Source: Hydrogenophaga intermedia (GTDB taxonomy: Bacteria; Pseudomonadota; Gammaproteobacteria; Ga0077536). From it: 64,000 nucleotides of DNA. This document shows positions 14,241-51,017 of this stretch, piece after piece. The notes beneath the pieces were generated by a model. The model was given only the letters and a program-made list of their open reading frames with translations, was not told the origin of the DNA and searched no databases. Location: positions 89,766-153,765 of the forward strand of contig CALRPY020000002.1 in the NCBI GenBank assembly GCA_943370145.1. Direction: 5' to 3'. Made by a program: the position numbers and the translations under genes. The stretch's first letter is position 1. Each line of letters begins with the position of its first letter.

Positions 14241-14609
14241 GCGTGTTGGCCTCGTCGAAAGCTGCGTGGAAGCCGGTGACCGGACGGGACTGAGCCCGCG
14301 CGGTCCGCGCCGGCGCTGTCGTGCGCCCGGCGGCGTATCCGGACTTCCGGATCTGGATTGATGTCTTCGGCCGCCGGCGACGCCGCCGGCGGGCACCTTC
14401 CTCGTTGACCGAGTCCGCCGCCCGTCACTGCAAGCCCATGAATAACCTTGCAATGACGCGGAAGATACGGTGCCGAATGGGGCGATTGTAACCCGCTGGC
14501 AGCAAGTTCCCAGCAGTAAATGGAATGAAGATCGAGGAAATTTTCCAACGGTCAGGGTCGGCGCCTGGCTGACCTTTATTCAACCGGGGACCGCGCCTGC
14601 GGGTCGGTT

Positions 14610-14685
14610 TGGTACTCCGTAGGGGAGTCGAACCCCTGTTCTCGCCGTGAGAGGGCGATGTCCTGGGCCACTAGACGAACGGAGC
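14610..14685 (-). tRNA. tRNA-Glu (anticodon CUC), CCA encoded
   Basis: The reverse complement GCTCCGTTCGTCTAGTGGCCCAGGACATCGCCCTCTCACGGCGAGAACAGGGGTTCGACTCCCCTACGGAGTACCA aligns with E. coli tRNA-Glu. The anticodon loop is CU-CUC-AC and the acceptor stem has 7 bp (G1-U72). Confidence 0.9.
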
Positions 14686-26849: not shown

Positions 26850-27245
26850 ATGAACTTCCGCCACTGGACACGCGCCCCGCGCTTCGGCGAGCTCGAAACG
26901 CAAATCATGGAGTGCATCTGGGCGCGCGGCGCGATGTCGGCGCGCGAGGTGCAGGATGCGCTGAGCGATCGCCAGCTGTCATTGAGCACGGTCCAGTCGA
27001 CCCTCGAGAGACTCTCCCGCAAGCACGTGCTCAGGCGCGAGAAACACAGCCGTGCCTTCGTTTATGCCGCCACCGTCGATCGGACCGAGCTGATCGGGCG
27101 CCTGCTGCGGGATTTGTCGGATGAATTCGCGACCGGCAGATTCGAGCCGCTCTTCAGTGGCTTCCTGACCCTCGTCGACGAACTCGAGCCGGCACGCGCC
27201 CAGGCCGCCCTGGAGACCTTGCGCAAGCATATCGAGGACAAGTGA
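26850..27245 (+). CDS. BlaI/MecI/CopY family winged-helix repressor
   Basis: ELETQIMECIWARGAMSAREVQDAL..LSTVQSTLERLSRKHVLRREK..AFVYAA. Start is ATG 26850, or TTG 26835. Confidence 0.8.
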   Translation: MNFRHWTRAPRFGELETQIMECIWARGAMSAREVQDALSDRQLSLSTVQSTLERLSRKHVLRREKHSRAFVYAATVDRTELIGRLLRDLSDEFATGRFEPLFSGFLTLVDELEPARAQAALETLRKHIEDK

Positions 27246-27258
27246 GGCGCGCCGCGCG

Positions 27259-28206
27259 ATGGTCGATGCGCCGCTCGTTCTGCCGCTGCTGACCTGCGGG
27301 CTCCTGTGGTGGCTCTTTGCCGCGATGGCGGCCGGCGCCTTGCCGTGGCTGCTGCGGGGGCTGCGTCGTCTCGTCCCCCACCAGCGCTCGCTGTGCCTGC
27401 TCGGCGTCGCGCTGTACCCCCCGGCCATCGCCGCAGGTTTGAGTTTCCTGGTCTACACGCCGGCGCTGACCGCGCTTGCCGTCGACGCGCACTGCCACGA
27501 TGGCGTGTGCGGACTCCACGTGCCGGTGCTCAGGGCCTCCAGCGGACTGGCCCTGCTCACCACCGCAACGCTGTTCACCACGCTGGTCGTCGCGCTGTGT
27601 TGCCTGGGCGTCGCCCTGTGGCGCAGCGCCCGCATGACGCGCCTCGTGGCGCGGCTGGCGCACCGGGACGATGGGCGCGATTTCCGGCTGATTGACAGCG
27701 ATCGCCTGATCGCCTGCTGCCTCGGGATCCTGCATCCGACGATCGTGATCTCGAGCGGCCTGCTTGCGCGCGCCGAGCCGCGCCAGCTCGACGTCATCCT
27801 GATGCACGAACATGCGCACCGCTACCGTCTCGACAACCTGCGGCACCTGCTGGCGGGAGTCTCCACGCTGGTCTGGCCGGCCGCGCGGCGCGCCCAGCTG
27901 TTGCTGGAACTGCGGCTCGCCGCCGAGCAGAGTTGCGACCACGCGGTTGCCGCGGTGGCGGGCGACACGCGAGTCGTTGCCGGCACGATCGGCCACCTGC
28001 GCGGCCTTCACCACGCGGATGGGCCTCGCGCACCGGACGCCGACCTGTTCGTGGCCGCGCGCCTCACGGCACTCGCTCGCGGCGACTGGGTGATCCTGTC
28101 GCGCGGCCGCGCCTGGTCAGCCCTCGCCCTGCTGATGAGCATGCCGCTCTGCGCGTTGAGCTACCCCTTGCATCGGCTGTTCGAATTGCTCGTCTCAACG
28201 CTGTGA
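27259..28206 (+). CDS. BlaR1-like M56 family membrane metalloprotease lacking an extracellular sensor domain
   Basis: Polytopic N-terminus, the zinc motif ILMHEHAHRYRLDNL, only 315 aa. Starts 13 nt after the BlaI-like gene. Confidence 0.78.
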   Translation: MVDAPLVLPLLTCGLLWWLFAAMAAGALPWLLRGLRRLVPHQRSLCLLGVALYPPAIAAGLSFLVYTPALTALAVDAHCHDGVCGLHVPVLRASSGLALLTTATLFTTLVVALCCLGVALWRSARMTRLVARLAHRDDGRDFRLIDSDRLIACCLGILHPTIVISSGLLARAEPRQLDVILMHEHAHRYRLDNLRHLLAGVSTLVWPAARRAQLLLELRLAAEQSCDHAVAAVAGDTRVVAGTIGHLRGLHHADGPRAPDADLFVAARLTALARGDWVILSRGRAWSALALLMSMPLCALSYPLHRLFELLVSTL

Positions 28207-28229: not shown

Positions 28230-28856
28230 TCAGGCGTTGAGGCTGATCGCGTAACCCCAGCTGTCGAGCCGTGAAGGAATCGCGTTGAACGCGATGGACA
28301 CGCGACGGTTTCCCATGTTGGCCGGCACCTCGTGCAGCAGATAGCTCGGCCACAACGCGAGATCGCCCGGCAGCACCTTCGGCAGCACCCACTTCGTGCC
28401 GTTGTACGACCCGACCCGGGACCGCTCGTTGTTGTTGCTGAAGACGAACTCGGCCGTGCCCATCGCCCGGTGGAAAACAGTATGGGCCGATGGGTCAACC
28501 GGGGTCAGGTAGAGCACGCCGGAGATGAAACTGTTCGCGTGCGCATGCAGCGACTGGTAACCCCCCTGCTCCAGCACGTTGATCCACATCTCCTTCACGG
28601 TCCATTCCAGCATTTCACCGAACAGCGTCGCGCCGAACTGCACGATGCGCGGCATCACCAGGGCGGCGATCTGGGCATACAGCGCATCGTTGTCCGGGCG
28701 CATGATCCGCGTGTGCGACAGGTTCGTGGACCTGGCATTGGTGGCCAGCGTTTCGCCCTCGGCGCGCTCCAGCAGGGCGTCGATGAGGCCGGCGCCGAGC
28801 AAGCGCTCCACGCGCATGAAGGGCACCGGGAAAAGACCCAGGATCTGCGCGCTCAT
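28230..28856 (-). CDS. TIGR02466 / PF13759-type putative 2OG-Fe(II) oxygenase (paralog B)
   Basis: WINVLEQGGYQSLHAHANSFISGVLYL..LALWPSYLLHEVPAN matches the family pattern as I recall it. Start trimmed to ATG 28856 (ATGA overlap with paralog A). Confidence 0.65.
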   Translation of the reverse strand: MSAQILGLFPVPFMRVERLLGAGLIDALLERAEGETLATNARSTNLSHTRIMRPDNDALYAQIAALVMPRIVQFGATLFGEMLEWTVKEMWINVLEQGGYQSLHAHANSFISGVLYLTPVDPSAHTVFHRAMGTAEFVFSNNNERSRVGSYNGTKWVLPKVLPGDLALWPSYLLHEVPANMGNRRVSIAFNAIPSRLDSWGYAISLNA

Positions 28857-29539
28857 GCCGACGGGCCTTCCATCGCCAGGATGCTGACGTTGAACGCGAC
28901 ACTGATCCGCTCCGCGCTGCCGAAGTACGGATGAACGAAGTGCTGCAACCATGATGGAAACACGATCATCTGCCCCGCGCGGGGACTGAGCAGGAAGCGG
29001 CCGTAGAGATTAGTGAGGTCCGCGTAACGCAGGCTTGCGCCCGGGCGCGGATCCACGAGTTCCAGTTTGCCGCTCAGCGGGTGGCCGTCCACGGCTTCGT
29101 TGTCCGTGACGTAGTAGACACCGGACCAGAATGCGTTGGGGTGGTTGTGCAGGCTGTGGTAGCCGCCGGGTGCCAGCACATTGGCCCAGGACTCGACATC
29201 GAAGCGGATGCGCTGGGGCGCCGCCTGCGGTCGCGCGACGCGGCGCGTGAGATCGTTGATGACCCGCTCCACCCGCTGGGCCAGTTCGCGCACGCATGGC
29301 ACATCGCGCTGGAGGAATTCGAGATCCGAGTGCCAGCCGCCGACATTGCTCCGTGTCAGCCCCGCACCCTGCCTCGCTTCGTGGACAATCAGCGCCCGCA
29401 ATTCGGCATTGAGCGGCTCGCTGTCGGGCCAGACGAGATTCATCAGCGGTGTCGAGAAGCACATCAGCAAGGCATCGTCGATCGTGGTCTGCGCGGGCAG
29501 GGCCTGCGCCGCGGCGGCGGGCGTCTCATTCGTGGTCAT
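28853..29539 (-). CDS. TIGR02466 / PF13759-type putative 2OG-Fe(II) oxygenase (paralog A)
   Basis: WANVLAPGGYHSLHNHPNAFWSGVYYV..GKLELVDPR..MIVFPSWLQHFVHPY. Start is ATG 29539; the TTG at 29569 is less likely. Confidence 0.65.
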   Translation of the reverse strand: MTTNETPAAAAQALPAQTTIDDALLMCFSTPLMNLVWPDSEPLNAELRALIVHEARQGAGLTRSNVGGWHSDLEFLQRDVPCVRELAQRVERVINDLTRRVARPQAAPQRIRFDVESWANVLAPGGYHSLHNHPNAFWSGVYYVTDNEAVDGHPLSGKLELVDPRPGASLRYADLTNLYGRFLLSPRAGQMIVFPSWLQHFVHPYFGSAERISVAFNVSILAMEGPSA

Positions 29540-29565
29540 GGCATTTCCAGGCTGGGATTGATGGG

Positions 29566-32142
29566 TCAACCGCCGAACAGCGACTCGCGCAGCGCGCGAG
29601 CCTCGGTGCGGCCCGGGTTGGCCGACTCGAGTTCGCGCAGCAGCGCGAGTGTCAGTTGCGGATCGGATTCGTAGAGCGCCCCCGCGAGACCGAGCAGTGG
29701 GCGATAGGCCGGGTCGAAATCGGGACTCATGCGCACGATGCGCAACAGTGGCTCACGGGTGCGTTCGAGCAGTCGTCGCGGGTCGGGATCCGGCCGGATG
29801 CCCGCGCCAGCCCGTAGAAAGGCATCGCGCGCTTCGCGATAGCGGGCGAGGCGCCGCGTGAACTCGTCCTCGCCCGCATGGCCGGGCGCCGTCGCGCTCG
29901 ACAGCTCGTCCAGCAGCGCCAGCACGCGCCCTTCGGCGGGTGCCTGGTCCTGGTACACGAAGCTGGGCGCCTGGTAGGTGACGCGCGGCAGGTCATCCGT
30001 ATTGATAGGGCCGGAGCCGGCAAAGTCGTGCAGCCTCTCGGCGCGTGCGAGCAGGCCGCCCAGCAGCGCGAAGTCGGAATCGAGGCGCATCTCGCGCAGT
30101 TCGGCCGCCAGGCGGGGGTCCGCCAGTCTGGGGGCGAGATGGCCGGCAAGTGCCTGTGTCGGTGCGTCCCGGTAGCCGACCAGCGCGACTATCGGCATGC
30201 CGAGGCTCAGGTGACCCAGATGGAGTTCGGCGCGGGGAAATTCCTGCAGGAAGGTGCGTGCGATGAGGCGCAAGGTTGGCAGATCGAGCTGGTAGAGCGG
30301 AAGCCACTGGCAGAACAGCCCGCCCTCGCGCAGGCGTCCGCGGACCGCCGCGAAATGCTCCCGCGTGTACAGCGTACCGCCGCCATCCCGCGACGGGTGG
30401 AAGAGATCGGCGACGATGACGTCGTAGCGCTCGCGTGTCGCGCTCACGTAGCGCCTCGCGTCCGCCGCGACGACGTGCAGACGGGGCGCGTGCGCGGGCA
30501 GGTCCGCAAACAGCGGATCGAACAACGCGAGCAGTGGCAGGATTTCCGGCAGCAGCTCGACCCCTGTGGCCGCAAGGCCCGGATGCGCGGCCGCGGCCGC
30601 GAAGGTCATGCCCGGACCGAGTCCGAGGAACAGCGCATCGCGCGGTGCCGGATGCAGCAGCAGCGGGATGTGTGCCTGTCGCCGATCGGAGTAGCGGGTC
30701 GCGGTGCCGCCCATGGTGAAGCGCTCGTCCACTTTGAGCTGGCGCGTGCCCCCACCGTCATCGACCACCGACACTGCGGCCATGCTGCCGTCGACGTGGT
30801 GTAACAGTTTGCCGCCTTGCGGCACCGTCACCAGGTGCAGCGCGGGCGCGAAGGCCCATAACGCGAGGGTCGACGCAGCCAGCCCCGGCGCAGCGGGATG
30901 CCGCCACGCGCGCCCGCTCAGCAGCGGGAGGTAGCCCGAGGCAAGGGCCAGCGCCGCGAGTTTGGCGCCGGCGGTTGGCAGCACCAGGACGCCGACGACG
31001 AAGGGCGCCAGCGCCGCCCCCAGCGTGTTCGCGGCCAGCGCGCGGCCGAGGTCGATACGTGCCGCATGCACCAGGTGTGAGAACAGGGCACCCATCGCGA
31101 GCGTGGGCGCCAGCAACACGGCGGCGGCGAGGGCCATCTCGGCCGCGATGCCGGCGAAGGGACCGGCGCCGAAGGTCGAGAGCAGTACGCCGTGCAGCCC
31201 GCGGCTGAACCACAGCAGGATGATGGCCGCGAGGCAAGTCACCGTGGTGGCCAGCAGCAGGCCGTCGAGCGTGCGCCTGAAGTCCGCACCCGGTCTGCGC
31301 CGTTGCCAGTACGCGGCGCCAAGCGCGGTGCCCAGCAGGTACACGGCAAGGACCGCGCCGAAAGTGTAGACGGTGTTTTCGAGCACCTGCGCGAGTACCC
31401 GCACGACCAGCACCTCGAATCCGACCCCGAGCAGCCCGGTCGCGAACAGCACGGGCAGCAGGTGGCGCGGCGGCGCGGCGGCGTTCGGCGTATTCCCGGT
31501 AGCATGGGAGGACGCGGTGTCGCGGTGGCTCGCAAGGAAAATCGCGGCAGCGCAGCCGAGGTTCAGCAGCGCGAGCGCGCAGAGCGTGCGCGAGTTGCCG
31601 ACGGCGGGCAGCAGGACGAAGGTAGCCAGCAGGGTGCCGAATACCGCACCGGCGGTGTTCGCCGCATAGAGGCCTGGCAGGCAGCGCGGCGCACCCGTCG
31701 TCGTCGCGACGATCCGCTCCATCGCCGGCAGCGTCGCGCCCATCGCGCAAGTGGCTGGCAGCAAAAGCACGAAGCTCGCGCCGAAGGCGAGCGACCAGTG
31801 CAGCCAGGCCGCCGGCGTCGGGCCCATCGCCATCGCGAGCAGGCCTGCCGCGGTGGGCGCCGCCGCCATCAGCACCAGCGCCCACAGGGCGATGACGATC
31901 TCGAGCGCCGCGTACCAGCGGACCGGATGGGCACTGCGCCGGATGCGGTCGTGCAGGACGAGCGCGCCCAGCGCGAGCCCCGTGAAGAATGCGCTCAGCA
32001 CCGCCAGAACGGCGATCACTTCGTGCCCGAGGAAGGAGGTGAGCACGCGCGTCCACACGATCTCGTAACCGAGGCCGGCGGCGCCCGACAGCAGCATCAC
32101 CAAGTGCAGCGCTCCGCTGCGATGGTGGCCGGCAGCGCTCAT
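29566..32142 (-). CDS. membrane-fused spermidine-synthase-like (PABS-fold) protein with C-terminal helical-repeat region
   Basis: 858 aa. About 470 aa of TM helices begin LLSGAAGLGYEIVWTRVLTSFLG. A Rossmann block follows: DALFLGLGPGMT..GVELLPEI..YDVIVADLFHP..LYTREHF..LREGGLFCQW. Confidence 0.75.
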   Translation of the reverse strand: MSAAGHHRSGALHLVMLLSGAAGLGYEIVWTRVLTSFLGHEVIAVLAVLSAFFTGLALGALVLHDRIRRSAHPVRWYAALEIVIALWALVLMAAAPTAAGLLAMAMGPTPAAWLHWSLAFGASFVLLLPATCAMGATLPAMERIVATTTGAPRCLPGLYAANTAGAVFGTLLATFVLLPAVGNSRTLCALALLNLGCAAAIFLASHRDTASSHATGNTPNAAAPPRHLLPVLFATGLLGVGFEVLVVRVLAQVLENTVYTFGAVLAVYLLGTALGAAYWQRRRPGADFRRTLDGLLLATTVTCLAAIILLWFSRGLHGVLLSTFGAGPFAGIAAEMALAAAVLLAPTLAMGALFSHLVHAARIDLGRALAANTLGAALAPFVVGVLVLPTAGAKLAALALASGYLPLLSGRAWRHPAAPGLAASTLALWAFAPALHLVTVPQGGKLLHHVDGSMAAVSVVDDGGGTRQLKVDERFTMGGTATRYSDRRQAHIPLLLHPAPRDALFLGLGPGMTFAAAAAHPGLAATGVELLPEILPLLALFDPLFADLPAHAPRLHVVAADARRYVSATRERYDVIVADLFHPSRDGGGTLYTREHFAAVRGRLREGGLFCQWLPLYQLDLPTLRLIARTFLQEFPRAELHLGHLSLGMPIVALVGYRDAPTQALAGHLAPRLADPRLAAELREMRLDSDFALLGGLLARAERLHDFAGSGPINTDDLPRVTYQAPSFVYQDQAPAEGRVLALLDELSSATAPGHAGEDEFTRRLARYREARDAFLRAGAGIRPDPDPRRLLERTREPLLRIVRMSPDFDPAYRPLLGLAGALYESDPQLTLALLRELESANPGRTEARALRESLFGG

Positions 32143-32747
32143 GCGGGGGCGAAGGCGAGTCCGATCATCATGATGCCGATCGCAGCGATCCAGCTGCCCG
32201 CCGCGCGCAAGGCGATCGCGCCCCAGTCACGCAGCGCGGCGAGCCGGTGCGCACCTGCCGTGACCAGCGTCAGCGACAGGTAGGCGGCGCAGCCGACGCC
32301 GCTGACGAACAGGAGGAGATCGCCACCTGCCGCGTGCGCGAGGCCGTTGTCGTAACCGTGGGTCACCCCCACGAGCACGGCCAGTGCGACGAGGAGGCCG
32401 GCCCGCAGGCGGGGCGCAATGGCCACGACGAGGCCGAGCAGCACGAAAGAGGCGGCATTGGCGCTCGTTATCCCCGTCAGTCCCGGCAGCAGCTGAGGCG
32501 CCGCGGCACCGAGCGCGACGGCCAGCGGGAACACGACGAGCAGGACGCGCGAGGCATGGACGGTCTGCAGGCCCGCGAGCAGGGCCAGGGCGACCCACGG
32601 CAGAACGTTCTCGAAGGCTGTCAGCGGGTGCATCAGGCCGACGTAAAAGTCGCCGAAGCGCGCCGATACGAGGTGCGCGTTCGCGGAGGCGGGGAGCGCC
32701 ATGAGCAGCGCCGCCGCCCGCCATGTCCGACGAATCCGCGGCCTCAT
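32139..32747 (-). CDS. divergent HupE/UreJ-like membrane protein
   Basis: Signal peptide ..ALPASANAH, then FGDFYVGLMHPLTAFENVLPWVA and 5-6 TM helices, in HupE-like order but with altered motifs. Trimmed from ORF 32139..33311 to ATG 32747 (ATGA overlap). Confidence 0.6.
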   Translation of the reverse strand: MRPRIRRTWRAAALLMALPASANAHLVSARFGDFYVGLMHPLTAFENVLPWVALALLAGLQTVHASRVLLVVFPLAVALGAAAPQLLPGLTGITSANAASFVLLGLVVAIAPRLRAGLLVALAVLVGVTHGYDNGLAHAAGGDLLLFVSGVGCAAYLSLTLVTAGAHRLAALRDWGAIALRAAGSWIAAIGIMMIGLAFAPA

Positions 32748-33349
32748 GCGCCGAGCACGCCGGCGTGCGCGAGCAGGAACCAGCCGCCGACCAGCGCCAC
32801 GCCGCCGCCGCAGGCACGCACGAGCAGCGCCCCCGACGGGCGGTGCTCGTGCGTGCCGATCAGGATGCCGGCGAGATGCAGCAGGCCGGTGGCAAGCACG
32901 AATCCAACCCCGTAGGCGAGCGGATTGGCGGCCGCAGGGAGTTCGGCCCCATGCGCGTGGCCGTGGAAGATCGCGAAGACCGCGACGATGGTCGCCGCGA
33001 TCGGGAGTGACGGTCGTGTGCAGGTGGCGACGAGCATGCCGAGCGCGATGGCCGAGCCGGCGACTCCGACCTCGACCATCGGCAACGGCACTCGCAGCAC
33101 CCCCAGCAGACCGCCGAGGGCCATCACGCTGGGAAACGTGATCGGCAGCGCCCACACCGCCGGGCGTCCCAGCTGGGCGCCCCACAGACCGACCGCGACC
33201 ATTGCCACCAGGTGATCGAAGCCGAGCACGGGGTGCAGCACGCCGCTGACGAAGCCGCCGGCCAGTCCCTCCTGCGAGTGGGCCCGCGCGACCCCGCAGG
33301 CACAGACGCACAGCAGGGCGAGCACAGGTTGCAGGGCATGTTTCATCAT
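32744..33349 (-). CDS. hupE: HupE/UreJ family metal (Ni/Co-type) permease
   Basis: MMKHALQPVLALLCVCACGVARAH..GFVSGVLHPVLGFDHLVAMVAVG..FAIFHGHAHGAE carries the canonical HPxxGxDH and FHGxxHG motifs. A GGGAG RBS lies 5 nt upstream. Confidence 0.82.
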   Translation of the reverse strand: MMKHALQPVLALLCVCACGVARAHSQEGLAGGFVSGVLHPVLGFDHLVAMVAVGLWGAQLGRPAVWALPITFPSVMALGGLLGVLRVPLPMVEVGVAGSAIALGMLVATCTRPSLPIAATIVAVFAIFHGHAHGAELPAAANPLAYGVGFVLATGLLHLAGILIGTHEHRPSGALLVRACGGGVALVGGWFLLAHAGVLGA

Positions 33350-33359
33350 CAGGCTCCCG

Positions 33360-34316
33360 TCAGGTGTCGAGCATCATGACCAGTCGTTCGCAGAACCACA
33401 CGGTGGCGAGCGTGCCCACGCCGTAAACGGGCAGGGCCGCGCTCCAGCGCGGCAGCTGTGCTTCGAGCGTGCGATGCGCCCAGCCGAGCGCCAGCACGAG
33501 CAACACGAACGCGAGCTGGCCGAGTTCCACACCGACATTGAAGAACAACAGTGCGGCGGGAATGCCGTCGGGTGGCAGGCCGAGCTTCGTCAGCGCGCCG
33601 GCGAAGCCGAACCCGTGCAGCAGGCCGAACGCGAAGGCGACGACCCAGGGGTAGCGCACCGTCAAACCGACCTGGCCCCGCCGACGCTTCACGACCTCGA
33701 CGGCGACGAACACGATGCTCAACGCGATTACCGCGTTGACCGGTCGCTCCGGCACCCCGAGCCAGCCCAGTGTCACCGCCGCCAGCGTCAGGCTGTGCGC
33801 GACGGTGAAGGCGGTGATGGTCTTGACCAGCATCCAGGTCGATGACACCAGCCACATGAGCCCGAGCACGAACAGGAGGTGATCGACGCCGAGCATGATG
33901 TGTTCGAAGCCGAGCGGGACGTAGCCGAGGGCGGCCTGCGCCCAGCCGACCGTGCCATCGGCGGACAGCGTGAGATTGGGCTGCGCGCCGGTCAGGGTGT
34001 AGGAGCGGGTGGCGCGGTTCAGCTGGCTGAGCTGGACCACCACGCCGGAATAACGCTTGCCGAGATCCTCGACGGTAATCGTGCCACTGAGGCCGAGTTC
34101 GCCGCATTCGAGGCGCGGACTCTCGTAGCGGCAATGGTCGGGGAACACCGCCGTCGGCGCCGGCACGCCGCGATCGGACTGGAAGTTCCAGGTCGCAATG
34201 TAGCTGCCGGGCTGCGTCTCCTTCAGCTGCAGCACGCCAATCAGCGTTTCGTGCGCCGCCGCCAAGCCCGGCGCGGCGAACAGCAGCAACAGAATCGCGC
34301 GGAGCGCTCGCCTCAT
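33360..34316 (-). CDS. HupE/UreJ_2 family membrane protein with N-terminal periplasmic domain
   Basis: Signal peptide, an extracytoplasmic domain of about 120 aa, then GFEHIMLGVDHLLFVLGL..AFTVAHSLTL..GLLHGFGFAGAL..NVGVELGQL. Confidence 0.72.
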   Translation of the reverse strand: MRRALRAILLLLFAAPGLAAAHETLIGVLQLKETQPGSYIATWNFQSDRGVPAPTAVFPDHCRYESPRLECGELGLSGTITVEDLGKRYSGVVVQLSQLNRATRSYTLTGAQPNLTLSADGTVGWAQAALGYVPLGFEHIMLGVDHLLFVLGLMWLVSSTWMLVKTITAFTVAHSLTLAAVTLGWLGVPERPVNAVIALSIVFVAVEVVKRRRGQVGLTVRYPWVVAFAFGLLHGFGFAGALTKLGLPPDGIPAALLFFNVGVELGQLAFVLLVLALGWAHRTLEAQLPRWSAALPVYGVGTLATVWFCERLVMMLDT

Positions 34317-35131
34317 GAACCGAGGTCCATGCGGATTTCATAGCGGGCGCGGATCGCCGCGATCGCGTCCGCCGCCTGCTGCTTCTGCTGGAGGTGTTTC
34401 CACTCGGATTCTGCCTGGAGGCGCACCGCTTCGAGCTTGGCCTGCTCCGCCGGCAAGACCCGGCTCACGCGCGCGGCGTGCCAGCCCTCGTTCGACTGTA
34501 CGGCCTGCCAGCGCTCGCCCGGTTGGGCGAGCAGCGTGGTCGCGAATCCGGCGCCGAACATCTGTTCGATGTTGGCCCGCGGCCGACCCTCGTAGCGCTT
34601 GATGCGATCGGTGATCCCGCCCGGCAAATCGCCGCCGTTCATTTCGGCCACGCGCGCGGCGGCGTCTCCCGCCGACTCCACCGTGAGCCTCACCTGCTCG
34701 AAGTCATAGCGTTCGGGCAGTTCGTAATATTGCCTGTTCTCCTCGAACCAGCGGCGGAGTTCTTCGTCCGTGGGACGGTCGACGACGATGCTGTCCATCA
34801 TCACCTGGCGCAGCTTGGTGACCATGCGCTCGCGGATCATGTCGTCGCCCTGGTCGAGGCCGCGCGCGATGGCTTCGCGGTACAGCACTTCGTTCTGCAC
34901 CCAGCGATACAGCAGCGAATCCATTTCCCTGGTCGTCGGCGGCCTGCCCTGGCCGCTTTCGAACATCTCGCGCAGCTCGCCGACCAGCGCATCGTCGACC
35001 CTGACCACGCGCTGGTTCGCCGCACTGTCGCCCAGCGAGTAGTCGAGCGCGAACACGAGTCCGCCGAGGATCAGGAAATGCGCCAGCGGTTCGTGCAGCA
35101 CGCGGGTTGCGAAGCGTTTGAGCCGGGACAC
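34313..35131 (-). CDS. membrane-anchored PpiC/Rotamase_2-type peptidyl-prolyl isomerase-like protein
   Basis: One N-terminal TM (LAHFLILGGLVFAL), then SurA/PpiD-like ..EMDSLLYRWVQNEVLYREA..DEELRRWFEENRQYYELPERYDFEQV..GWHAARV. The GTG start at 35131 is preceded by GGAG; ORF track start 35314 is less likely. Confidence 0.6.
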   Translation of the reverse strand: MSRLKRFATRVLHEPLAHFLILGGLVFALDYSLGDSAANQRVVRVDDALVGELREMFESGQGRPPTTREMDSLLYRWVQNEVLYREAIARGLDQGDDMIRERMVTKLRQVMMDSIVVDRPTDEELRRWFEENRQYYELPERYDFEQVRLTVESAGDAAARVAEMNGGDLPGGITDRIKRYEGRPRANIEQMFGAGFATTLLAQPGERWQAVQSNEGWHAARVSRVLPAEQAKLEAVRLQAESEWKHLQQKQQAADAIAAIRARYEIRMDLGS

Positions 35132-35429
35132 GGGGCTTACTCCAGAGGACGTCGATGCTGGTGGCGGCTGGTTCGGGCGGGCGACGGGGAGACGCAATCG
35201 CGTCCCGACCCTTCGTCCCGCGCGAGGCGTCGGAGTTAACACGGCGTGTGTGAATTCTGTATGACACGCCGCTGCAAGCGGCAAATGCCGACAACTGCGC
35301 TCGCGAAGAGTCATGAAACGTTAACCCTTGCTTAATTGTGTCGTCGCGCACGCTTTTGAAACTGTCCGCAGTCGCTCGAAACACGAGTCGGCAGTACCCC
35401 CCTTGAACCGGACAACAACAATCGGAGGG

Positions 35430-36200
35430 ATGACTCTCATGTTGCCCTGTAGAACAGCTCTGAAAACCGTCGGCGCTTCGCTCGCGCTCGGCGTCGCGCT
35501 CGCGATGGCCAACCCGGCCGCGGCGGCGTCCAACTATGCGGCCTCGGCGGTCGGTAACCTGACCCTGGTGCAGATCGCGTCAGCCGGTCCGCTGGCGGGC
35601 CTCAGCTTCTCCTTTACCGATGACAGCGACTCGACCGGTTCGGTCCTCGGCGCGGCCACGAATGGCGGCGCCGCCGCGGTCGCGAGCTTCGACGACCCGC
35701 TGGGGCTCGGCGTCGGCTTCGACCTCGAAGTCAGCGCCTTCGCGGACGGCCTGGCTGGTGACGATGGCGCGCAGAGTGCCGGCTCCAGCGAACACAGCGC
35801 CTACGCGATGGGCTTCGTCAGCATCGTCAACGGCTCGGCGAACACGGTGGACCTGACCTTCGGCCTGAGCTGGCTGCTCGACACCGCGGTTGGCGCCACG
35901 GGTGGCTTGCTCGTCGAAGACGCATTCGGCGACGCGTCCTTCGAGCTGACGGTCAACGGCGCGAGCCAGTTCCTGTCGGCCATCTCGGCGGACGTGTTCC
36001 TCGGCCCGCTCGACGCCGGCGTGAACGAACTCGACGAACTCTTCTTCAGCCTTGCGCCCGGCGAAACCCTGACGCTCGACCTGAGCGCCACCGCGTTCGG
36101 CACCGCCGACGCGTCGCCGGTGCCGGTGCCCGCGGCGCTGCCGCTGCTCGGTTCCGCGCTCGCGGGCCTGTGGGGCCTGCGTCGCCGCCGGGCGGCGTGA
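35430..36200 (+). CDS. secreted acidic protein with VPLPA/PEP-CTERM-type C-terminal sorting signal
   Basis: GGAGGG RBS, signal peptide ..ALAMANPAAAA, and a mature domain of about 225 aa with no Lys or Arg. The C-terminus reads PVPVPAALPLLGSALAGLWGLRRRRAA. Confidence 0.7.
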   Translation: MTLMLPCRTALKTVGASLALGVALAMANPAAAASNYAASAVGNLTLVQIASAGPLAGLSFSFTDDSDSTGSVLGAATNGGAAAVASFDDPLGLGVGFDLEVSAFADGLAGDDGAQSAGSSEHSAYAMGFVSIVNGSANTVDLTFGLSWLLDTAVGATGGLLVEDAFGDASFELTVNGASQFLSAISADVFLGPLDAGVNELDELFFSLAPGETLTLDLSATAFGTADASPVPVPAALPLLGSALAGLWGLRRRRAA

Positions 36201-36264: not shown

Positions 36265-38295
36265 ATGAAACGTAATCTCCTGCATACGGCAGTCGTTGCC
36301 GCGATGGCGGCCGGCACGCTCGGCGCCACCAGCGACAGCTTCGCCGCCAGCGGCTACCAGGCCGGCGACTTCCACAACCACACGACCTGCACCGACGGCT
36401 CGACCTCGACGAAGACGCTCGCCAACAAGTCGCTGACCTATCTCGACTGGTTCATCGACGTCGGCCACAGCGGCTCCGGCAACCGTGACTGCCGCATCGA
36501 CGACTTCGCCTACAACGGCCCGGCCGACGGCCAGGGCAACTACTGGTCGAACACGATCGGCAACGCCGCGATCGAGGGCGACCCGGTCACCTCCACCAGC
36601 AACGGCGCGCCGAGCGGCACCCGCGCGATGTGGCGCTGGCAGTCCCTGCTGCAGTTCGTGCTCCCTGACGTCCGCGAGGAGGGCATCGCGGCGGGCAAAC
36701 CGGCCTTCCTCGGCCTCGAATGGACTGTGCCGGGCCACGAGCACGCCAGCGTCAGCGTCATCACCGGCCAGTACGAAGCGACCCCCGTCTCCGAGCAGAT
36801 GGCGAAGTTCGAGTACTGCTTCGGCGGCCCGAGCAACGACACCTCGAAGGGCGGCGGCCGCGGCTGGACCTGCGAGATCAGCGCCGCGAACAACCAGAAG
36901 CTGATCGACCGCTTCACTTCGGGCAACGACCCGGTGGCCCAGGGCGCGCCGGACTACAACGGCAGCATTCCGGCCGGCGTCGGCGTGAAGACCGCCGACA
37001 ACGGCGACCACGTCAAGTCGACCGCCGGCATCCACTGGATGCAGGAAAACAACCCCGGCAAATCCTTCGCCGTCCCGGCGCACCTCGAGCGCGCCGGCGC
37101 GTTCCGCGCGGGCAACAACAACGGCTACAACATCGAGCACATCCGCGACTGGAACAACGCGGGTCCCGAAGTCGCGTTCGGCTTCGAGAGTCAGCCCGGT
37201 CACCAGGCGAGCGACGATCGCGGCGAGTACGCCGCGTCGCGGCCCACGGTCGGTCTGTTCACCTTCGGCGGCACCGGTTGCTACGCCGGCGCCGAGGCCT
37301 CGCAGCCCGGCTTCAAGTTCGACGGCACGCCGCTGACCGCTGCGGATTTTGCACCCGGTGGCGAGTTCGAGATGGTGTCCGACACGATGAGCCCGGCCCG
37401 CGTGACCGTGTGTCGCCCCGGCGTGCGCACCGCGTGGGACGCGATGCTATCCGAAGGCCGTCGCTTTTGGTTCTTCGCGAGCTCCGACTGGCACAATCGC
37501 GGCCAGTTCGCGCCCTTCGATGAACAGCGCCGCTCCACGCTCGACTTCTTCCCCGGCGAGTACCAGAAGAACCACACGTTCATCCGCGCGGCCAACAAGA
37601 GCAACCCGGCCCAGGACATCGTCGACGGCCTGCGTTCCGGCAACAACTTCGCGACCACCGGCGACCTCATCGACCAGGCCCGTTTCCGCGCCTGCGTGGG
37701 CACCCGCTGCGCGACGATGGGCCAGACGCTGAAGGTCAAGCCGGGCGACAACGTCGTCGTCAGCATCGAAGTGCGCGATCCGCCGGGCGCGAACCACAGC
37801 CCGTACAGCTTCCCGAACCCGGCCCTGCTGCAACTCGGCGTCCAGCAGCCGCTGAACAAGCCCGAGCTTGCCCAGGTCGACCTGATCTCGGGCGTCGTCA
37901 CCGGCATGATTGAAGAAGCTGCCGATCCTGTCGGCTACCGCACCCAGCTGGCGCCGCCGACGACGGTGCTCGCGAAGTCGTGGACGACCGCCGACTGGCA
38001 GCCGCGCAACAATCCGTGGAAGCGCATGAAGTACACGATCCCGGCAGTCGGCCAGGACATGTACGTGCGTGTCCGCGGCTCCAACCTGCCGGCCGGCACG
38101 CCGAACGAGCGTGACGCCAACGGCAATCCGCTGCGCGACGACCTTGCCAACAACATCGCGTGCGCCAACGCGGCGTGCCCGACGCATGTCAATGGCAAGT
38201 TCGACATGGACGTCGAAGCCTGGGGTGATCTCTCGTTCCACCTGAACCCGATCTTCATCGCGGTGGAGCAGCCGCTGCAGGCCGGCAACCCGTAA
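36265..38295 (+). CDS. secreted PHP-domain (polymerase/histidinol-phosphatase-like) metal-dependent phosphoesterase family protein
   Basis: Signal peptide MKRNLLHTAVVAAMAAGTLGATS. PHP motifs GDFHNHTTCTDGS, GLEWTVPGHEH and ASSDWHN occur in the expected order. Confidence 0.6.
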   Translation: MKRNLLHTAVVAAMAAGTLGATSDSFAASGYQAGDFHNHTTCTDGSTSTKTLANKSLTYLDWFIDVGHSGSGNRDCRIDDFAYNGPADGQGNYWSNTIGNAAIEGDPVTSTSNGAPSGTRAMWRWQSLLQFVLPDVREEGIAAGKPAFLGLEWTVPGHEHASVSVITGQYEATPVSEQMAKFEYCFGGPSNDTSKGGGRGWTCEISAANNQKLIDRFTSGNDPVAQGAPDYNGSIPAGVGVKTADNGDHVKSTAGIHWMQENNPGKSFAVPAHLERAGAFRAGNNNGYNIEHIRDWNNAGPEVAFGFESQPGHQASDDRGEYAASRPTVGLFTFGGTGCYAGAEASQPGFKFDGTPLTAADFAPGGEFEMVSDTMSPARVTVCRPGVRTAWDAMLSEGRRFWFFASSDWHNRGQFAPFDEQRRSTLDFFPGEYQKNHTFIRAANKSNPAQDIVDGLRSGNNFATTGDLIDQARFRACVGTRCATMGQTLKVKPGDNVVVSIEVRDPPGANHSPYSFPNPALLQLGVQQPLNKPELAQVDLISGVVTGMIEEAADPVGYRTQLAPPTTVLAKSWTTADWQPRNNPWKRMKYTIPAVGQDMYVRVRGSNLPAGTPNERDANGNPLRDDLANNIACANAACPTHVNGKFDMDVEAWGDLSFHLNPIFIAVEQPLQAGNP

Positions 38296-48099: not shown

Positions 48100-48111
48100 C
48101 GGCAGCGGGTG

Positions 48112-49248: not shown

Positions 49249-49300
49249 GGTGCTCGGCCGGGGTGGCGCGGGCGGGTCGGGCCGCCGGCGTCGCCGGTGC

Positions 49301-50907: not shown

Positions 50908-51017
50908 AGTACGTACCCGTCCGACTGGTTGATCGCGGAATTGTTGCAGTTAAGTGCCGGACGCGCAAAAAGAACGCGGGACCGAAGTCCCGCGCGCGAT
51001 GCCCCGATCCGCGGCGC

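Follow-up and report, generated by a model that had tools for sequence, protein, structure and literature searches.

The gene cluster

In the window, i.e. the whole 64,000-nucleotide stretch of DNA that was analysed, seven co-directional genes run on the minus strand from 35131 down to 28230 (G1 to G7, Table 1), as is apparent both from the listed ORFs and when the strand is read directly. They are linked by four ATGA stop/start overlaps (34313-34316, 32744-32747, 32139-32142 and 28853-28856), with gaps of 10 nt between G2 and G3, where a GGGAG is found, and of 26 nt between G5 and G6. This is the arrangement given in a preliminary description of the locus, which took the genes to be one unit, and on account of the overlaps and of conserved adjacency it is very likely that they form a single operon. 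Two close relatives (L084 and L085), in which G5 is 91% identical to the window copy, have gene calls in identical order with products of 272, 318, 200, 202, 862, 228 and 208 amino acids; a longer ORF for G1 from an ATG at 35314 is disfavoured by a 2-nt indel just 5' of the GTG at 35131 in these relatives. The divergent promoter region between the operon and the plus-strand genes U1 and U2 is 97% identical in the same relatives and contains an inverted repeat, and a search of it revealed no Pho box (up to three mismatches), convincing NikR site or sigma-70-like match.

Table 1. Features of the cluster, with positions in the window
Feature	Position	Strand	Length (aa)	Description	Place in the module
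D3	24625-26700	-		TonB-dependent receptor (Plug + TonB_dep_Rec_b-barrel)	recurrent accessory
D1	26850-27245	+		BlaI/MecI/CopY-family repressor (Penicillinase_R, 1.5e-23)	accessory
D2	27259-28206	+		BlaR1-like M56/M48 membrane protease, convergent with G7	accessory
G7	28230-28856	-	208	TIGR02466-type oxygenase-like protein	core; G5 usually adjacent
G6	28853-29539	-	228	TIGR02466 / 2OG-FeII_Oxy_5 oxygenase-like protein, second copy	accessory
G5	29566-32142	-	858	membrane-fused SpeE-like protein	defining core member
G4	32139-32747	-	202	divergent HupE/UreJ paralogue	accessory, accompanies G3
G3	32744-33349	-	201	classical HupE/UreJ permease	accessory
G2	33360-34316	-	318	HupE_UreJ_2 membrane protein	core
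G1	34313-35131	-	272	membrane-anchored PPIase-like (Rotamase_2) periplasmic protein; GTG start, first gene of the operon	core
Divergent promoter region	35132-35429			between the G1 operon and U1-U2	
Inverted repeat	35242-35271			CGGCGTGT-N14-ACACGCCG	
U1	35430-36200	+		small secreted protein, PEP-CTERM / VPLPA-CTERM-like tail SPVPVPAALPLLGSALAGLWGLRRRRAA	lineage-specific accessory
U2	36265-38295	+	676	PHP-like metallohydrolase, predicted to be exported	core; tightest partner of G5
U3	38365-38961	-		small exported ZrgA/DUF2796-like protein (weak match)	seen in this lineage only

Profile searches agree with the domains previously assigned to the seven products, and the calls exceed curated cut-offs for all of them except G7 against TIGR02466. 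G1 matches Rotamase_2 in Pfam (49.4 bits, cut-off 27, 1e-12), has a single N-terminal transmembrane segment (residues 11-29) and matched no NCBIfam family. Three HupE-family proteins follow. In G2 (HupE_UreJ_2, PF13795; 168 bits, 1.2e-49) a signal peptide precedes some 110 residues of periplasmic N-domain and a HupE-like transmembrane bundle with the TM1 motif EHIMLGVDH, and the predicted mature N-terminus starts with His (AAA|HETL). G3 (HupE_UreJ, PF04955; 189 bits, 7.6e-56) has the signature HPVLGFDH and the mature N-terminus ARA|HSQE, and in G4 (PF04955; 55 bits, 9.6e-15) the HupE signature is degenerate (HPLTAFEN). Both oxygenase-like proteins match 2OG-FeII_Oxy_5 (PF13759), G6 with 83 bits (1.8e-23) and G7 with 78 bits (1e-21); against TIGR02466, with its cut-off of 62.5, G6 scores 87 bits and G7 56. 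Among solved structures G6 is closest to 2rg4 and 3bvc, two uncharacterised proteins with which the HxH...H and RxS motifs of G7 align. Domain matches likewise bear out the earlier identification of the neighbouring TonB-dependent receptor and BlaI/BlaR1-like pair. D1 scores 50 bits against CopY/TcrY, under the cut-off, and the CopY Cys motif is absent from its sequence, whilst D2 (Peptidase_M56 6.5e-7, M48 1.6e-5) has an HEHAH motif and, in a loop rich in Cys and His, the sequence HCHDGVCGLH.

The membrane-fused SpeE-like protein

G5 combines some 12 transmembrane helices (residues 2-431, arranged 6+6 about a disordered central loop) with a SpeE-fold domain (approximately 445-660) and a helical, TPR-like C-terminal domain (676-856). 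The AF2 model (pLDDT 88, pTM 0.89) shows the SpeE fold in full together with the 6+6 helices, and the best 50 Foldseek matches listed are aminopropyltransferases throughout, with TM-scores on the target of 0.61-0.72. The protein matches Spermine_synth in Pfam (32.9 bits, 6e-8) and the NCBIfam "fused MFS/spermidine synthase" model NF037959 (62.7 bits vs a cut-off of 40), and the transporter-like domain gives a weak MFS_1 match in 2 of 20 family members. Scores against the SpeE equivalogs are far beneath their cut-offs (69.7 vs 472, 54.5 vs 260 and 40.8 vs 249.6). Relatives are encoded in at least 556 species-level genomes, and the family has invariant motifs of its own, LGLGxG for the GGG(D/E)G of SpeE and A(D/E)xFHP for DxxDP; Thr or Pro replaces the acidic residue of the former and an invariant His the second Asp of the latter, the catalytic Asp/Glu being retained. 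It is known from SpeE and putrescine N-methyltransferase that SAM is favoured over dcSAM once GGG(D/E)G has lost its acidic residue. Having lost this dcSAM-specific residue and one substrate Asp, G5 is, judging from its motifs, not a normal spermidine synthase. The "polyamine-derived" small molecule of the preliminary description is thus not established, since these two aminopropyltransferase hallmarks are missing, and SAM appears to be the likelier donor.

The genes upstream of the operon

In U2 a divergent domain of the PHP-like metallohydrolase type is joined to a beta-sandwich at the C-terminus; the protein also has a Sec signal and eight invariant Cys in four conserved pairs. Its invariant residues include DFHNH, H68, E152/H158/E159/H160, H273, H313 and D408/H410. 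All 20 family members examined match the CehA/McbA model NF038032 (best 3.3e-15), every one under its cut-off, and the sequence gave no match in Pfam or among PDB sequences and no significant one in a fold search. The earlier designation of U2 as a PHP protein thus stands as a remote, PHP-like match, but one scoring beneath the model's cut-off. Similarly, the reading of U3 as a DUF2796/ZrgA protein has a Pfam match behind it (6.6e-5), but at 23.4 bits this is short of the cut-off of 27.4; a 198-aa gene is called in the close relatives and tblastn found no match to U3 among the other loci. Export of U2 is predicted from the signal peptide and the eight invariant Cys, together with the PEP-CTERM tail carried by its Tepidisphaerales homologue and the type II secretion genes near the module elsewhere (GspC-like genes adjoin it in eight alpha-proteobacterial loci, with more such genes beside several).

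U1, lying between the two operons, was absent from the preliminary description. Its tail scores 16.8 bits against TIGR02595 (cut-off 16) and is under the cut-off for TIGR03370 (19.3 bits) and Pfam PEP-CTERM (14.6 bits). It has only three homologues in a collection of 5.8 billion proteins, and in at least 13 other loci the corresponding place is taken by unrelated PEP-CTERM proteins (enrichment p=4e-4).

Conservation of the module

That the combination should recur in other genomes had been named beforehand as a test, and 47 of 81 non-redundant related loci, all from other species, carry U2, G1, G2, G5 and G7-type genes. These loci belong to alpha-, beta- and gamma-proteobacteria and Myxococcota and show at least six different gene orders, in which G1 and G2 are always adjacent and G7 is usually next to G5. 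Dozens of species have these families around a G5 homologue in rearranged order, and so the association is not due to chance. The operon is one half of a larger conserved module that includes the divergent U2; the seven genes are not themselves the functional unit, the conserved core being those five, with G3, G4 and G6 as lineage-specific accessories and the TonB receptor, BlaI/BlaR and U1 as further ones. When counted over 83 loci, U2 is present in 61, some of them in lineages without any other part, G7-type genes in 57, G2 in 53 and G1 in 51, G2 directly following G1 every time; G3 (21, about a quarter) and G4 (22) are less frequent and a G6-type copy was seen in only a few. The U2-G5 pair occurs alone in delta-proteobacteria and Tepidisphaerales, and in Planctomycetota, Verrucomicrobiota and Latescibacterota G5 is found without other core genes, in some planctomycetal loci among PEP-CTERM genes.

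Links to phosphate and metals

Searching 1.58 Mb of loci for CTGTCAT-N4-CTGTCAT with up to two mismatches yielded 20 occurrences of the Pho box, 17 of them within the promoter regions of U2, G7, G5 and G1, which make up 3.7% of the sequence. The boxes are found in 16 of 158 promoter regions from at least 11 lineages, and precede U2 and G7-G5. With 420 composition-matched permutations of the motif the mean was 0.51 regions, the next best being cyclic shifts of the Pho motif itself. L047 has pstB-phoU-phoB, each exceeding its NCBIfam cut-off, some 5 kb away from the module; in L026 PhoB (above cut-off) is encoded immediately 5' of G7-G5; and L003/L005, L009 and L043 have, beside U2-G5, either pstB-phoU or PhoB-like regulators accompanied by PnpS/PhoR-like kinases. 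The Pho boxes and pho genes, overlooked in the preliminary description, are the strongest regulatory signal and point to phosphate starvation rather than metal limitation alone. Phosphate control in the window genome itself is suggested by homology only, because no Pho box with up to three mismatches was found around the cluster and the local regulators are BlaI/BlaR1-like.

The metal theme of the preliminary description gains support. The module is accompanied by a small periplasmic metal-binding protein that differs by lineage, PCuAC in 11 loci, an EF-hand lipoprotein in eight, CopC in five and the ZrgA-like protein in the window. D3 was matched in 11 loci, and in nine of them the homologue (44-51% identical) adjoins the module, with exact NikR operators 5' of the receptor gene in three related Bradyrhizobium genomes (L049, L063 and L082) and one with a single mismatch in a Steroidobacteraceae locus (L066). 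D2, with its Cys/His loop, has homologues adjoining the module in L014 and L040, as well as in the close relatives L084 and L085. Fur, Zur and CueR sites were not enriched, and a riboswitch search found none.

Possible functions of the module

In relatives the module is tied to metal handling and to the response to phosphate starvation, which suggests that it probably helps to scavenge phosphate outside the cytoplasm. The best explanation, held tentatively at a probability of roughly 35%, is a phosphate-starvation module in which an exported metallo-esterase is combined with a metal-supply branch and a branch for aminoalkylation of a small molecule or lipid; we infer the catalytic activities, the direction of transport and the identity of any metal. 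U2 would be exported by Sec, fold with the assistance of G1 and be loaded with metal outside the cytoplasm, where it would hydrolyse an ester, probably a phosphoester, and release free phosphate. Its role as an esterase or phosphatase is a prediction for a protein that is sub-threshold in every curated model and without a structural neighbour. G2-G4, the TonB receptor and the periplasmic metal-binding protein (ZrgA-like here, PCuAC-, CopC- or EF-hand-type elsewhere) would handle its metal. G5 would move a 3-amino(-3-carboxy)propyl group from SAM, not dcSAM, to an acceptor, its membrane domain serving as the route out for its own product, and G7, in the window also G6, would hydroxylate the substrate or product, which may be an exported amino-carboxylate or polyamine-like chelator feeding the metal branch, or alternatively an amino-lipid. 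Several points count against this phosphate model. The window cluster lacks a Pho box and has BlaI/BlaR1-like regulators instead, HupE-type permeases are known importers into the cytoplasm and so fit poorly with the loading of a periplasmic enzyme, nothing links the chemistry of G5 or G7 to metals or phosphate, the resemblance of the transporter-like domain to MFS_1 is weak, the lone G5 of Planctomycetota, Verrucomicrobiota and Latescibacterota is unexplained by an integrated scheme, and exact NikR operators were seen only in three Bradyrhizobium genomes, related to one another, besides the one single-mismatch site of Steroidobacteraceae.

Ordinary polyamine biosynthesis and export, with G5 a true spermidine synthase joined to an exporter and the other genes unrelated neighbours, is very improbable. 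Aminopropyltransferases are nearest to G5 in Pfam and NCBIfam, the fold search agrees and the catalytic Asp/Glu is kept, but the scores against SpeE, the family-wide replacement of two hallmark residues and the neighbours all speak against it, the last being conserved and reshuffled alongside G5 and therefore not there by chance; an unsystematic look also revealed no SAM decarboxylase among the loci. It is likewise quite improbable that G5 and G1 serve to modify or anchor surface proteins, among them U2 and those with a PEP-CTERM tail, G5 for example supplying what might be an amine-bearing acceptor for exosortase. PEP-CTERM-like genes, of families unrelated from lineage to lineage, are enriched at distances of up to 1.5 kb from core genes (17 vs 12, in 14 loci, p=4e-4, the proximal zone being 27.6% of the non-core sequence). 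In Phycisphaerae tandem G5 genes are interleaved with them, and the tail on the Tepidisphaerales U2 and the TPR-like domain of G5 would also suit such a role. A PPIase, that of the EpsD family, is known to accompany PEP-CTERM/EPS loci, but G1 lies outside that family, as it matches nothing in NCBIfam. Most full modules lack a PEP-CTERM gene nearby, no exosortase was seen among the loci examined, the background rate is high in Planctomycetota, where such genes are very numerous, and the Pho and metal signals are left unexplained.

Rather unlikely too is metal acquisition pure and simple, the first of the two options in the preliminary description, in which G5 and G6/G7 make and export a metallophore akin to nicotianamine or an opine, its Ni, Co, Cu or Zn complex is reimported by the TonB receptor and HupE proteins, U2 releases the metal and phosphate is incidental. 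The three HupE-family genes, the recurrent receptor with its exact NikR operators in Bradyrhizobium, the periplasmic metal-binding partners and the BlaR1-like sensor with its Cys/His loop would all find a place, the fusion of enzyme and transporter-like domain fits a make-and-export role, and the alkyl transfer catalysed by the SpeE fold is of the kind carried out by nicotianamine synthase or CntL. However, Pho boxes precede U2 and G7-G5 and pho genes are adjacent in many lineages, neither Fur, Zur or CueR sites nor a riboswitch came to light, no NAS/CntL- or CntM-type gene is present, most loci are without the TonB receptor or classical HupE genes, and the minimal U2-G5 pair has no importer. 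Another rather unlikely reading, one that accommodates the Pho boxes immediately 5' of G7-G5 and of U2, is phosphate-sparing remodelling of the envelope, with the cytoplasmic domain of G5 aminoalkylating a membrane lipid, the membrane domain flipping it, G7 hydroxylating it and U2 removing the phosphate head groups of lipids in the outer leaflet or of LPS. The genes downstream in Desulforhabdus include one for a metallophosphoesterase and a glycosyltransferase-like one, but lipid-related domains were not detected, small solutes are the usual cargo of MFS-like folds and the HupE proteins, metal chaperones and TonB receptor would be without a role.

In line with the preliminary description, a literature search found no characterised pathway uniting these genes and no paper on the module, which is conserved across many bacterial lineages and apparently unstudied. 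Under lipid remodelling G5, as a transferase fused to a large polytopic domain, would work like MprF or BtaA. The module has no methyltransferase partner of the BtaB kind, but without the dcSAM-specific residue G5 could transfer a 3-amino-3-carboxypropyl group from SAM, as BtaA does in betaine-lipid synthesis.

Organisation of the gene cluster

The window sequence holds seven consecutive minus-strand genes with the boundaries that had been proposed in the preliminary description: a PPIase-like protein (G1, Rotamase_2), a HupE_UreJ_2 protein (G2), two HupE_UreJ proteins (G3 and G4), a membrane protein fused to a SpeE-like part (G5, Spermine_synth) and two TIGR02466-type oxygenase-like proteins (G6 and G7, 2OG-FeII_Oxy_5/TIGR02466). 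Four of the junctions are ATGA overlaps (Table) and the remaining two are gaps, one of 10 nt that holds GGGAG and one of 26 nt. Independent gene calls in two metagenomic relatives, in which G5 is 91% identical, gave proteins of 272, 318, 200, 202, 862, 228 and 208 aa in unchanged order, and a 2-nt indel in these relatives upstream of the GTG at 35131 shows the longer G1 open reading frame to be non-coding. The reading of the window confirms the layout and junctions claimed by the preliminary description, the gene calls of the relatives give independent support to the gene boundaries, and profile searches reproduced all of its domain assignments, with G7 just under the TIGR02466 cut-off.

The operon is separated by a divergent region of 298 nt from two genes encoding a small secreted protein (U1) and a larger exported protein (U2), which are followed by a ZrgA-like gene (U3), and on its other flank lie genes for a BlaR1-like protease (D2), a BlaI-family repressor (D1) and a TonB-dependent receptor (D3). 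The whole block is flanked by lnt/corC and hemE/gltDB in a region that is otherwise housekeeping; the cluster is inserted between the corC-lnt block and a conserved gamma-proteobacterial block that runs from a DamX-like gene to pilM, together with gltBD and hemE. Other genes of the window are included in the Table.

Table. Location of the cluster, its sequence features and other genes of the window
Feature	Coordinates	Strand	Remarks
DUF455 protein	6353-7285	+	5e-94; straight after an alpha/beta hydrolase, zero gap between ORFs
CHASE2-SpoIIE (PP2C) membrane sensor phosphatase, then metallo-beta-lactamase-fold protein	8890-12055	-	8-nt overlap
Aldehyde:ferredoxin oxidoreductase (AOR) family gene (tungsten/molybdopterin)	12525-14579	-	amid housekeeping genes of a high-GC proteobacterium
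tRNA gene	14613-14685	-	adjoins the AOR-family gene
TonB-dependent receptor (D3)	24625-26700		downstream of operon
BlaI-family repressor (D1)	26850-27245		downstream of operon
BlaR1-like M56/M48 protease (D2)	27259-28206	+	convergent, downstream of operon
Operon G1-G7	35131-28230	-	seven genes
ATGA overlaps	34313-34316, 32744-32747, 32139-32142, 28853-28856		operon junctions
Inverted repeat	35242-35271		divergent promoter region
U1, small secreted protein	35430-36200	+	divergent from operon
U2, exported PHP-like protein	36265-38295		676 aa with Sec signal peptide; divergent from operon
Weak ZrgA-like gene (U3)	38365-38961		after U2
DamX-like AAA+SPOR protein, dGTPase-like HD protein, aroB, PilQ secretin with AMIN domains, pilM	46336-56111	-	conserved block

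Conservation of the module

Full-length homologues of G5 at about 50% identity number in the thousands, and a profile search of 1.84 billion representatives returned 10,622 clusters at E <= 1e-30. The family comprises at least 150 full-length 50%-identity clusters, and more than 500 species-level genomes encode a member; when each species was represented by a single genome, a pattern scan detected at least 556 carriers. The preliminary description had proposed a survey of gene neighbourhoods, and when this was run on 80 loci fetched from G5 carriers the families were found to co-occur around G5 homologues in other genomes. Searching 83 loci by tblastn with the proteins of the window recovered U2 in 61, a TIGR02466-type gene in 57, G2 in 53, G1 in 51, G3 and G4 in 21 and 22 respectively, the TonB receptor in 11 and BlaI/BlaR in two. 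Removal of duplicates left 81 loci that fall into four classes. The full core of U2, G1, G2, G5 and a G7-type gene is present in 47 of the 81, with the HupE pair as well in 19 of these 47; 12 loci are partial, about half of them on contigs of less than 10 kb; nine loci, from delta-proteobacteria and Tepidisphaerales, have U2 and G5 only; and in 13, from Planctomycetota, Verrucomicrobiota, Latescibacterota and Gemmatimonadota, G5 stands alone.

The order and strand of the module genes vary widely by lineage, with G1 and G2 constantly adjacent and G7 mostly abutting G5. Shuffled order with retained adjacency of particular pairs is the classical signature of a functional module, and therefore the seven-gene operon is to be regarded as the form that a core of five genes, together with accessories, has taken in one lineage, and this core includes the divergently transcribed U2. 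The possibility that these genes are chance neighbours was rejected on the evidence of conservation. Most members of the module carry the label "hypothetical protein" or "spermidine synthase" in the source annotations.

Regulation

Scanning the regions upstream of the core genes for known operator consensus sequences yielded two signals, the Pho box and the NikR operator. The motif CTGTCAT-N4-CTGTCAT, with up to two mismatches allowed, has 20 matches in 1.58 Mb of related loci and 17 of these lie in the promoter regions of U2, G7, G5 or G1, which make up 3.7% of that sequence. Predicted Pho boxes thus occur in 16 of 158 promoter regions, the 16 belonging to 14 related loci, compared to a mean of 0.51 regions for 420 composition-matched permutations of the half-site, among which the other high scorers were solely cyclic shifts of the motif. 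The best sites, e.g. CTGTAATAAAACTGTCAT, match the extended enterobacterial consensus. Boxes are predicted on both units, U2 and G7-G5, and the carriers include Rhodomicrobium, Bradyrhizobium, Rubrivivax, Steroidobacteraceae and several beta-, gamma- and alpha-proteobacterial MAGs. Genes of the Pho system itself are found close by: in one locus (L047) pstB, phoU and phoB, all scoring over their NCBIfam equivalog cut-offs, lie ~5 kb from the module, in another (L026) PhoB is encoded directly upstream of G7-G5 (316 bits against a cut-off of 296), and in delta-proteobacterial loci PhoB-like regulators flank U2-G5, accompanied by a PnpS/PhoR-like kinase (L009) or by pstB-phoU (L003/L005).

The second signal is more restricted. 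Three Bradyrhizobium loci (L049:7498-7525, L063:7542-7569 and L082:7490-7517) have an exact E. coli-type NikR operator, GTATGA-N16-TCATAC, ahead of the receptor-G5 unit, and a Steroidobacteraceae MAG (L066:11317-11344) has a site with a single mismatch upstream of its receptor. Scans with the Fur, Zur, CueR, Irr and CopY consensus sequences upstream of the core genes in 80 loci revealed no notable enrichment.

In the window itself the promoter regions near the cluster contain no Pho box with up to three mismatches and no convincing NikR site, one half-site only being present. An Rfam search of the window yielded one tRNA only and no riboswitch, sigma-70 promoters and intrinsic terminators did not rise over the shuffled background, and no BlaI-type operator common to the receptor/blaI and G1/U1 regions was seen. 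The divergent promoter region does contain a perfect 8-bp inverted repeat, CGGCGTGT-N14-ACACGCCG. The evidence suggests that the region of this repeat is a candidate operator, because the divergent promoter region is 97% identical in the relatives whereas their coding sequences have diverged more; at this level of identity phylogenetic footprinting of the G1/U1 region was uninformative.

The SpeE-fold membrane fusion protein

The AlphaFold (AF2) model of G5 is a confident one (pLDDT 88, pTM 0.89) and comprises 6+6 membrane helices, a disordered central loop, a complete SpeE fold, in which both the beta-hairpin N-domain and the Rossmann domain are present, and a helical C-terminal domain. The positive-inside rule would place the SpeE-like domain in the cytoplasm. 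The top 50 Foldseek matches listed were all aminopropyltransferases (E about 1e-9, TM-score 0.61 - 0.72) and a profile search of the PDB likewise returned aminopropyltransferases exclusively. G5 scores 62.7 bits against a cut-off of 40 with the model NF037959, "fused MFS/spermidine synthase", the best stretch being residues 552-640 in the SpeE-like part. MFS_1 was matched by two of 20 family members (E=0.0037), and the "MFS" label is weakly supported for the N-terminal domain. We know of no member of NF037959 or of the G5 family that has been characterised.

In SpeE structures the acidic residue of the GGG(D/E)G motif pairs with the amine of dcSAM and excludes SAM, and published work on SpeE and on putrescine N-methyltransferase points to it as the residue that selects dcSAM over SAM. 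Of the two aspartates of the D-x-x-D-P motif the first is catalytic and the second holds the distal amine of the diamine, putrescine. Both motifs have changed in the G5 family. The acidic residue is replaced by Thr or Pro, giving a family consensus of LGLG(T/P)G, and in the window LGLGPG aligns with GGGEG of 1uir; D-x-x-D-P has become (D/E)-x-F-H-P, in which the first position stays Asp or Glu and the second is an invariant His, the window protein having DLFHP against DLTDP of 1uir. The family retains the Glu that binds ribose, the Asp that binds adenine and the first acidic residue, which is the catalytic one, and a set of family-specific invariant residues (R585, D586, Y592, E595, Q612 and W613) surrounds the active site. 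G5 falls short of the SpeE equivalog cut-offs by a wide margin (PRK03612, 69.7 against 472 bits; PRK00811, 54.5 against 260; TIGR00417, 40.8 against 249.55). Because of the two motif departures and these scores, G5 should be regarded as a putative SpeE-type alkyl transferase and should not be classed as a spermidine synthase.

The exported PHP-like protein and other proteins of the locus

U2 lies outside the families covered by Pfam, a scan of 20 family members being empty, PHP included, and a profile search of PDB sequences was also empty. The CehA/McbA (PHP-like) model NF038032 was matched by all 20 family members under its cut-off, the window protein scoring 48 bits against a cut-off of 80 over residues 390-537. 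Residues invariant in the family are DFHNH, H68, E152/H158-H160, H273, H313 and D408-H410, a pattern of His, Asp and Glu that fits the metal ligands of PHP proteins (HxH ... H ... E ... H ... H ... DxH), with no significant match of fold or sequence to solved PHP proteins. Eight invariant cysteines are consistent with an oxidising compartment. The AF2 model is of moderate quality (pLDDT 74.5) and Foldseek found nothing in the PDB under E=0.01, the C-terminal domain matching beta-sandwiches only. A U2 homologue from Tepidisphaerales (L057:4207-5913) ends in a PEP-CTERM tail.

G2, G3 and G4 score 168, 189 and 55 bits with HupE-family Pfam models (PF04955 or PF13795), in each case over the gathering score. 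The HupE/UreJ signature HPxxGxDH, which sits in the first TM helix, is typical in G3 (HPVLGFDH), variant in G2 (EHIMLGVDH) and degenerate in G4 (HPLTAFEN). The mature proteins are predicted to begin with His in G2 (AAA|HETL), G3 (ARA|HSQE) and G4 (ANA|HLVS); an N-terminal His is a feature of several periplasmic metal sites, and such a site is possible in all three. G6 exceeds the thresholds of both TIGR02466 (87 against 62.5 bits) and Pfam (83 against 27), and G7 that of Pfam (78 against 27) but not of TIGR02466 (56 against 62.5). The metal-binding triad HxH...H and the 2OG-binding RxS motif, R(I/V)S, are conserved in both and align with 2rg4 and 3bvc, two structural-genomics proteins lacking an assigned function to which the likeness of G6 and G7 is confined.

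D2 combines a HEHAH zinc site with a Cys/His-rich loop, HCHDGVCGLH, at about residues 78-87 between early TM segments, and this loop could be a metal sensor. The Cys motif of CopY is absent from the BlaI-like repressor. U1 is nearly an orphan, with three homologues among 5.8 billion proteins (100%, 87% and 49% identity). Its C-terminus, SPVPVPAALPLLGSALAGLWGLRRRRAA, is a tail of the PEP-CTERM/VPLPA-CTERM type in which the motif is visible by eye; it barely exceeds the TIGR02595 threshold (16.8 against 16) and falls under those of Pfam (14.6 against 20.7) and TIGR03370 (19.3 against 25.35). U1 was not detected by an HMM of the PEP-CTERM family from other loci, and there is no exosortase among the annotated ORFs of the 64-kb window nor in the related loci examined.

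Lineage-specific accessories

Unassigned ORFs around the core were clustered de novo and scanned against family libraries. The additions that recur are a protein of the PCuAC family exported by TAT (11 loci; Pfam, 44 bits), PEP-CTERM proteins of about 215 aa that form one family (10 - 12 loci; over the Pfam PEP-CTERM cut-off), an EF-hand lipoprotein (eight loci), GspC-like genes (eight alpha-proteobacterial loci) and CopC (five loci). By these assignments the small periplasmic metal-binding protein that is added differs from lineage to lineage, and the ZrgA-like protein of the window fits the pattern. PEP-CTERM-like ORFs are concentrated around the core, 17 lying within 1.5 kb of it compared to 12 at greater distance (p=4e-4; 14 loci), the proximal zone being 27.6% of the non-core sequence, and in many other lineages the position of U1 is filled by a PEP-CTERM-tailed gene whose product is unrelated to U1. 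Further type II secretion genes are found beside several of the GspC-like loci and beside the Rhodomicrobium locus.

Several individual loci merit description. Type II secretion genes adjoin the module at L002:478-4327 and in the flanks of L042, L050, L059 and L081, all alpha-proteobacterial, and those near the Rhodomicrobium module encode the E, F and G components and a prepilin peptidase. In two Phycisphaeraceae loci (L029:4901-19221 and L074:4241-17526) several PEP-CTERM genes are interspersed among tandem paralogues of G5, the other core genes being absent. In Desulforhabdus (L003:12955-16612) phoB/phoR-like genes and pstB-phoU precede a U2-like/G5 pair, after which come a gene for a large metallophosphoesterase that is secreted, one for a second PHP-domain protein, which is cytoplasmic, and a glycosyltransferase-like gene.

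Interpretation and significance

There are a number of facts that any model of the module must cover. The tightest association is that of G5 with the exported U2, and in many lineages control by PhoB is predicted for the units of both. HupE-type permeases have been recruited repeatedly, as have periplasmic metal-binding proteins and a TonB receptor, with predicted control by nickel in one genus. The foldase-like G1 is invariably paired with the HupE_UreJ_2 protein G2, and functions of surface sorting or secretion, namely PEP-CTERM and type II secretion, cluster near the module. The reading that we consider most likely, with a probability of about 0.35, is that of a phosphate-starvation module centred on U2 as an exported metal-dependent esterase. 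U2 would be folded by G1 and would receive its metal by way of G2 to G4, the TonB receptor and the chaperones, and the cytoplasmic G5/G7 pair would make an aminoalkylated compound and pass the product outward, where it might serve as a chelator for the metal branch or as a lipid. The catalytic steps in this reading and in its rivals are all hypothetical. The preliminary description had suggested metal acquisition with a polyamine-derived molecule or metal-dependent envelope modification, an interpretation that is partly supported; its main corrections concern how far the unit extends, what kind of protein G5 is and the link to phosphate.

A wider formulation is put forward tentatively. The G5 family might represent a class of 3-amino(-3-carboxy)propyl transferases that is new, SAM-dependent and integrated in the membrane, and U2 might found a new family of secreted phosphate-scavenging metalloenzymes, the two forming with G1, G2 and G7 an unrecognised branch of the Pho regulon in which extracellular phosphate release is coupled to making and exporting either a new metallophore or an amino-lipid free of phosphorus, with a side link to PEP-CTERM surface proteins; that all of this holds jointly must be considered doubtful. 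It is similarly somewhat unlikely, if conceivable, that the module is a truly new pathway.

If the phosphate-starvation reading is true, many environmental bacteria, including alpha-, beta- and gamma-proteobacteria, Myxococcota, wastewater glycogen-accumulating organisms and sulfur-oxidising symbionts, have the same unstudied module. It would hold a new kind of secreted metalloenzyme outside any Pfam family and a SpeE-fold enzyme with a switched donor or acceptor fused to a membrane domain. A new enzyme family would join the phosphatases that serve as markers of phosphorus stress, there would be a genetic handle on the coupling of phosphorus and trace-metal limitation, and a first function would be available for three large families, the NF037959-type fusions, TIGR02466/PF13759 and HupE_UreJ_2. 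Independently of mechanism, the reshuffled yet conserved five-gene core with predicted PhoB control stands.

Comparison with known systems

The component families are all catalogued, the module itself is not, and nothing relevant emerged when the literature was searched for this combination of genes, for the names of the families, for PEP-CTERM or the Pho regulon with spermidine synthase, and for DUF3604. Ordinary spermidine synthesis is a highly improbable explanation. G5 resembles SpeE and NF037959 proteins in having a complete SpeE fold, with Foldseek TM-scores of up to about 0.7, and in passing the NF037959 cut-off, but it differs in its extra helical C-terminal domain of about 200 aa and in its conserved setting with exported and periplasmic partners, and the idea of an ordinary spermidine synthase was rejected on the evidence of conservation and motifs. 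A pure metallophore system is a better candidate, albeit an unlikely one. The cnt loci (CntL/CntM, exporter, receptor/importer) have a logic in common with the module in that both combine a SAM-dependent aminoalkyl transferase, putative in the case of G5, with a membrane domain that resembles an exporter, with a TonB receptor and with metal permeases of the inner membrane, and the module is likewise under a predicted metal repressor in one genus. However, domains of the nicotianamine-synthase-family enzyme and opine dehydrogenase are absent among the 13 genes of the locus, which has instead two 2OG-oxygenase-like proteins, an exported PHP-like hydrolase and a PPIase, and the module has Pho boxes and not Zur boxes. 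With regard to the HupE/UreJ Ni/Co permeases, G3 is typical of the group, the family models are matched by G2 and G4 as well, and the Bradyrhizobium NikR operators precede the receptor and G5 in a locus that also holds G2 to G4. The module differs in lacking a riboswitch and any context of hydrogenase, urease or B12, its conserved member being of the HupE_UreJ_2 type, with a periplasmic N-domain and a constant PPIase-like partner, and the classical HupE genes being dispensable accessories.

Phosphate-sparing remodelling of lipids or of the envelope, of the MprF or BtaA kind, also seems unlikely to be the explanation. MprF is a flippase fused to lysyl-phosphatidylglycerol synthase and BtaA is a SAM:diacylglycerol 3-amino-3-carboxypropyl transferase. 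The analogy of G5 to the former would be one of architecture, a polytopic membrane domain fused to a cytoplasmic transferase, and to the latter one of chemistry and regulation, alkyl transfer from SAM under phosphate starvation, but G5 has no relationship of sequence or fold to either. Lower still must be placed the probability of a PEP-CTERM-linked system for the maturation or anchoring of surface proteins: U1 and unrelated proteins at the same position elsewhere bear PEP-CTERM-type tails, but the module differs from PEP-CTERM/exosortase sorting systems in that no exosortase was seen among the annotated ORFs of the window or in the loci examined, and the association with the module is partial (14 of 81 loci).

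The reading of a phosphate-starvation module centred on U2 invites comparison with the secreted phosphatases of the Pho regulon, PhoX, PhoD and, in Pseudomonas aeruginosa, LapA with its dedicated Hxc type II secretion system. The likeness resides in a predicted PhoB-controlled, exported metal-dependent hydrolase, and the type II secretion genes beside the module in alpha-proteobacteria recall the Pho-regulated Hxc/LapA system. U2 differs in standing outside the PhoX, PhoD and LapA families as a divergent PHP-like protein that has neither a Pfam model nor a relative of solved structure, and in being genetically locked to G5, a partner absent from known phosphatase systems. Judged by its predicted proteins, the module does not share the defining enzymes of either the Pho-regulated secreted phosphatase systems or the cnt loci, but it resembles both in its logic.
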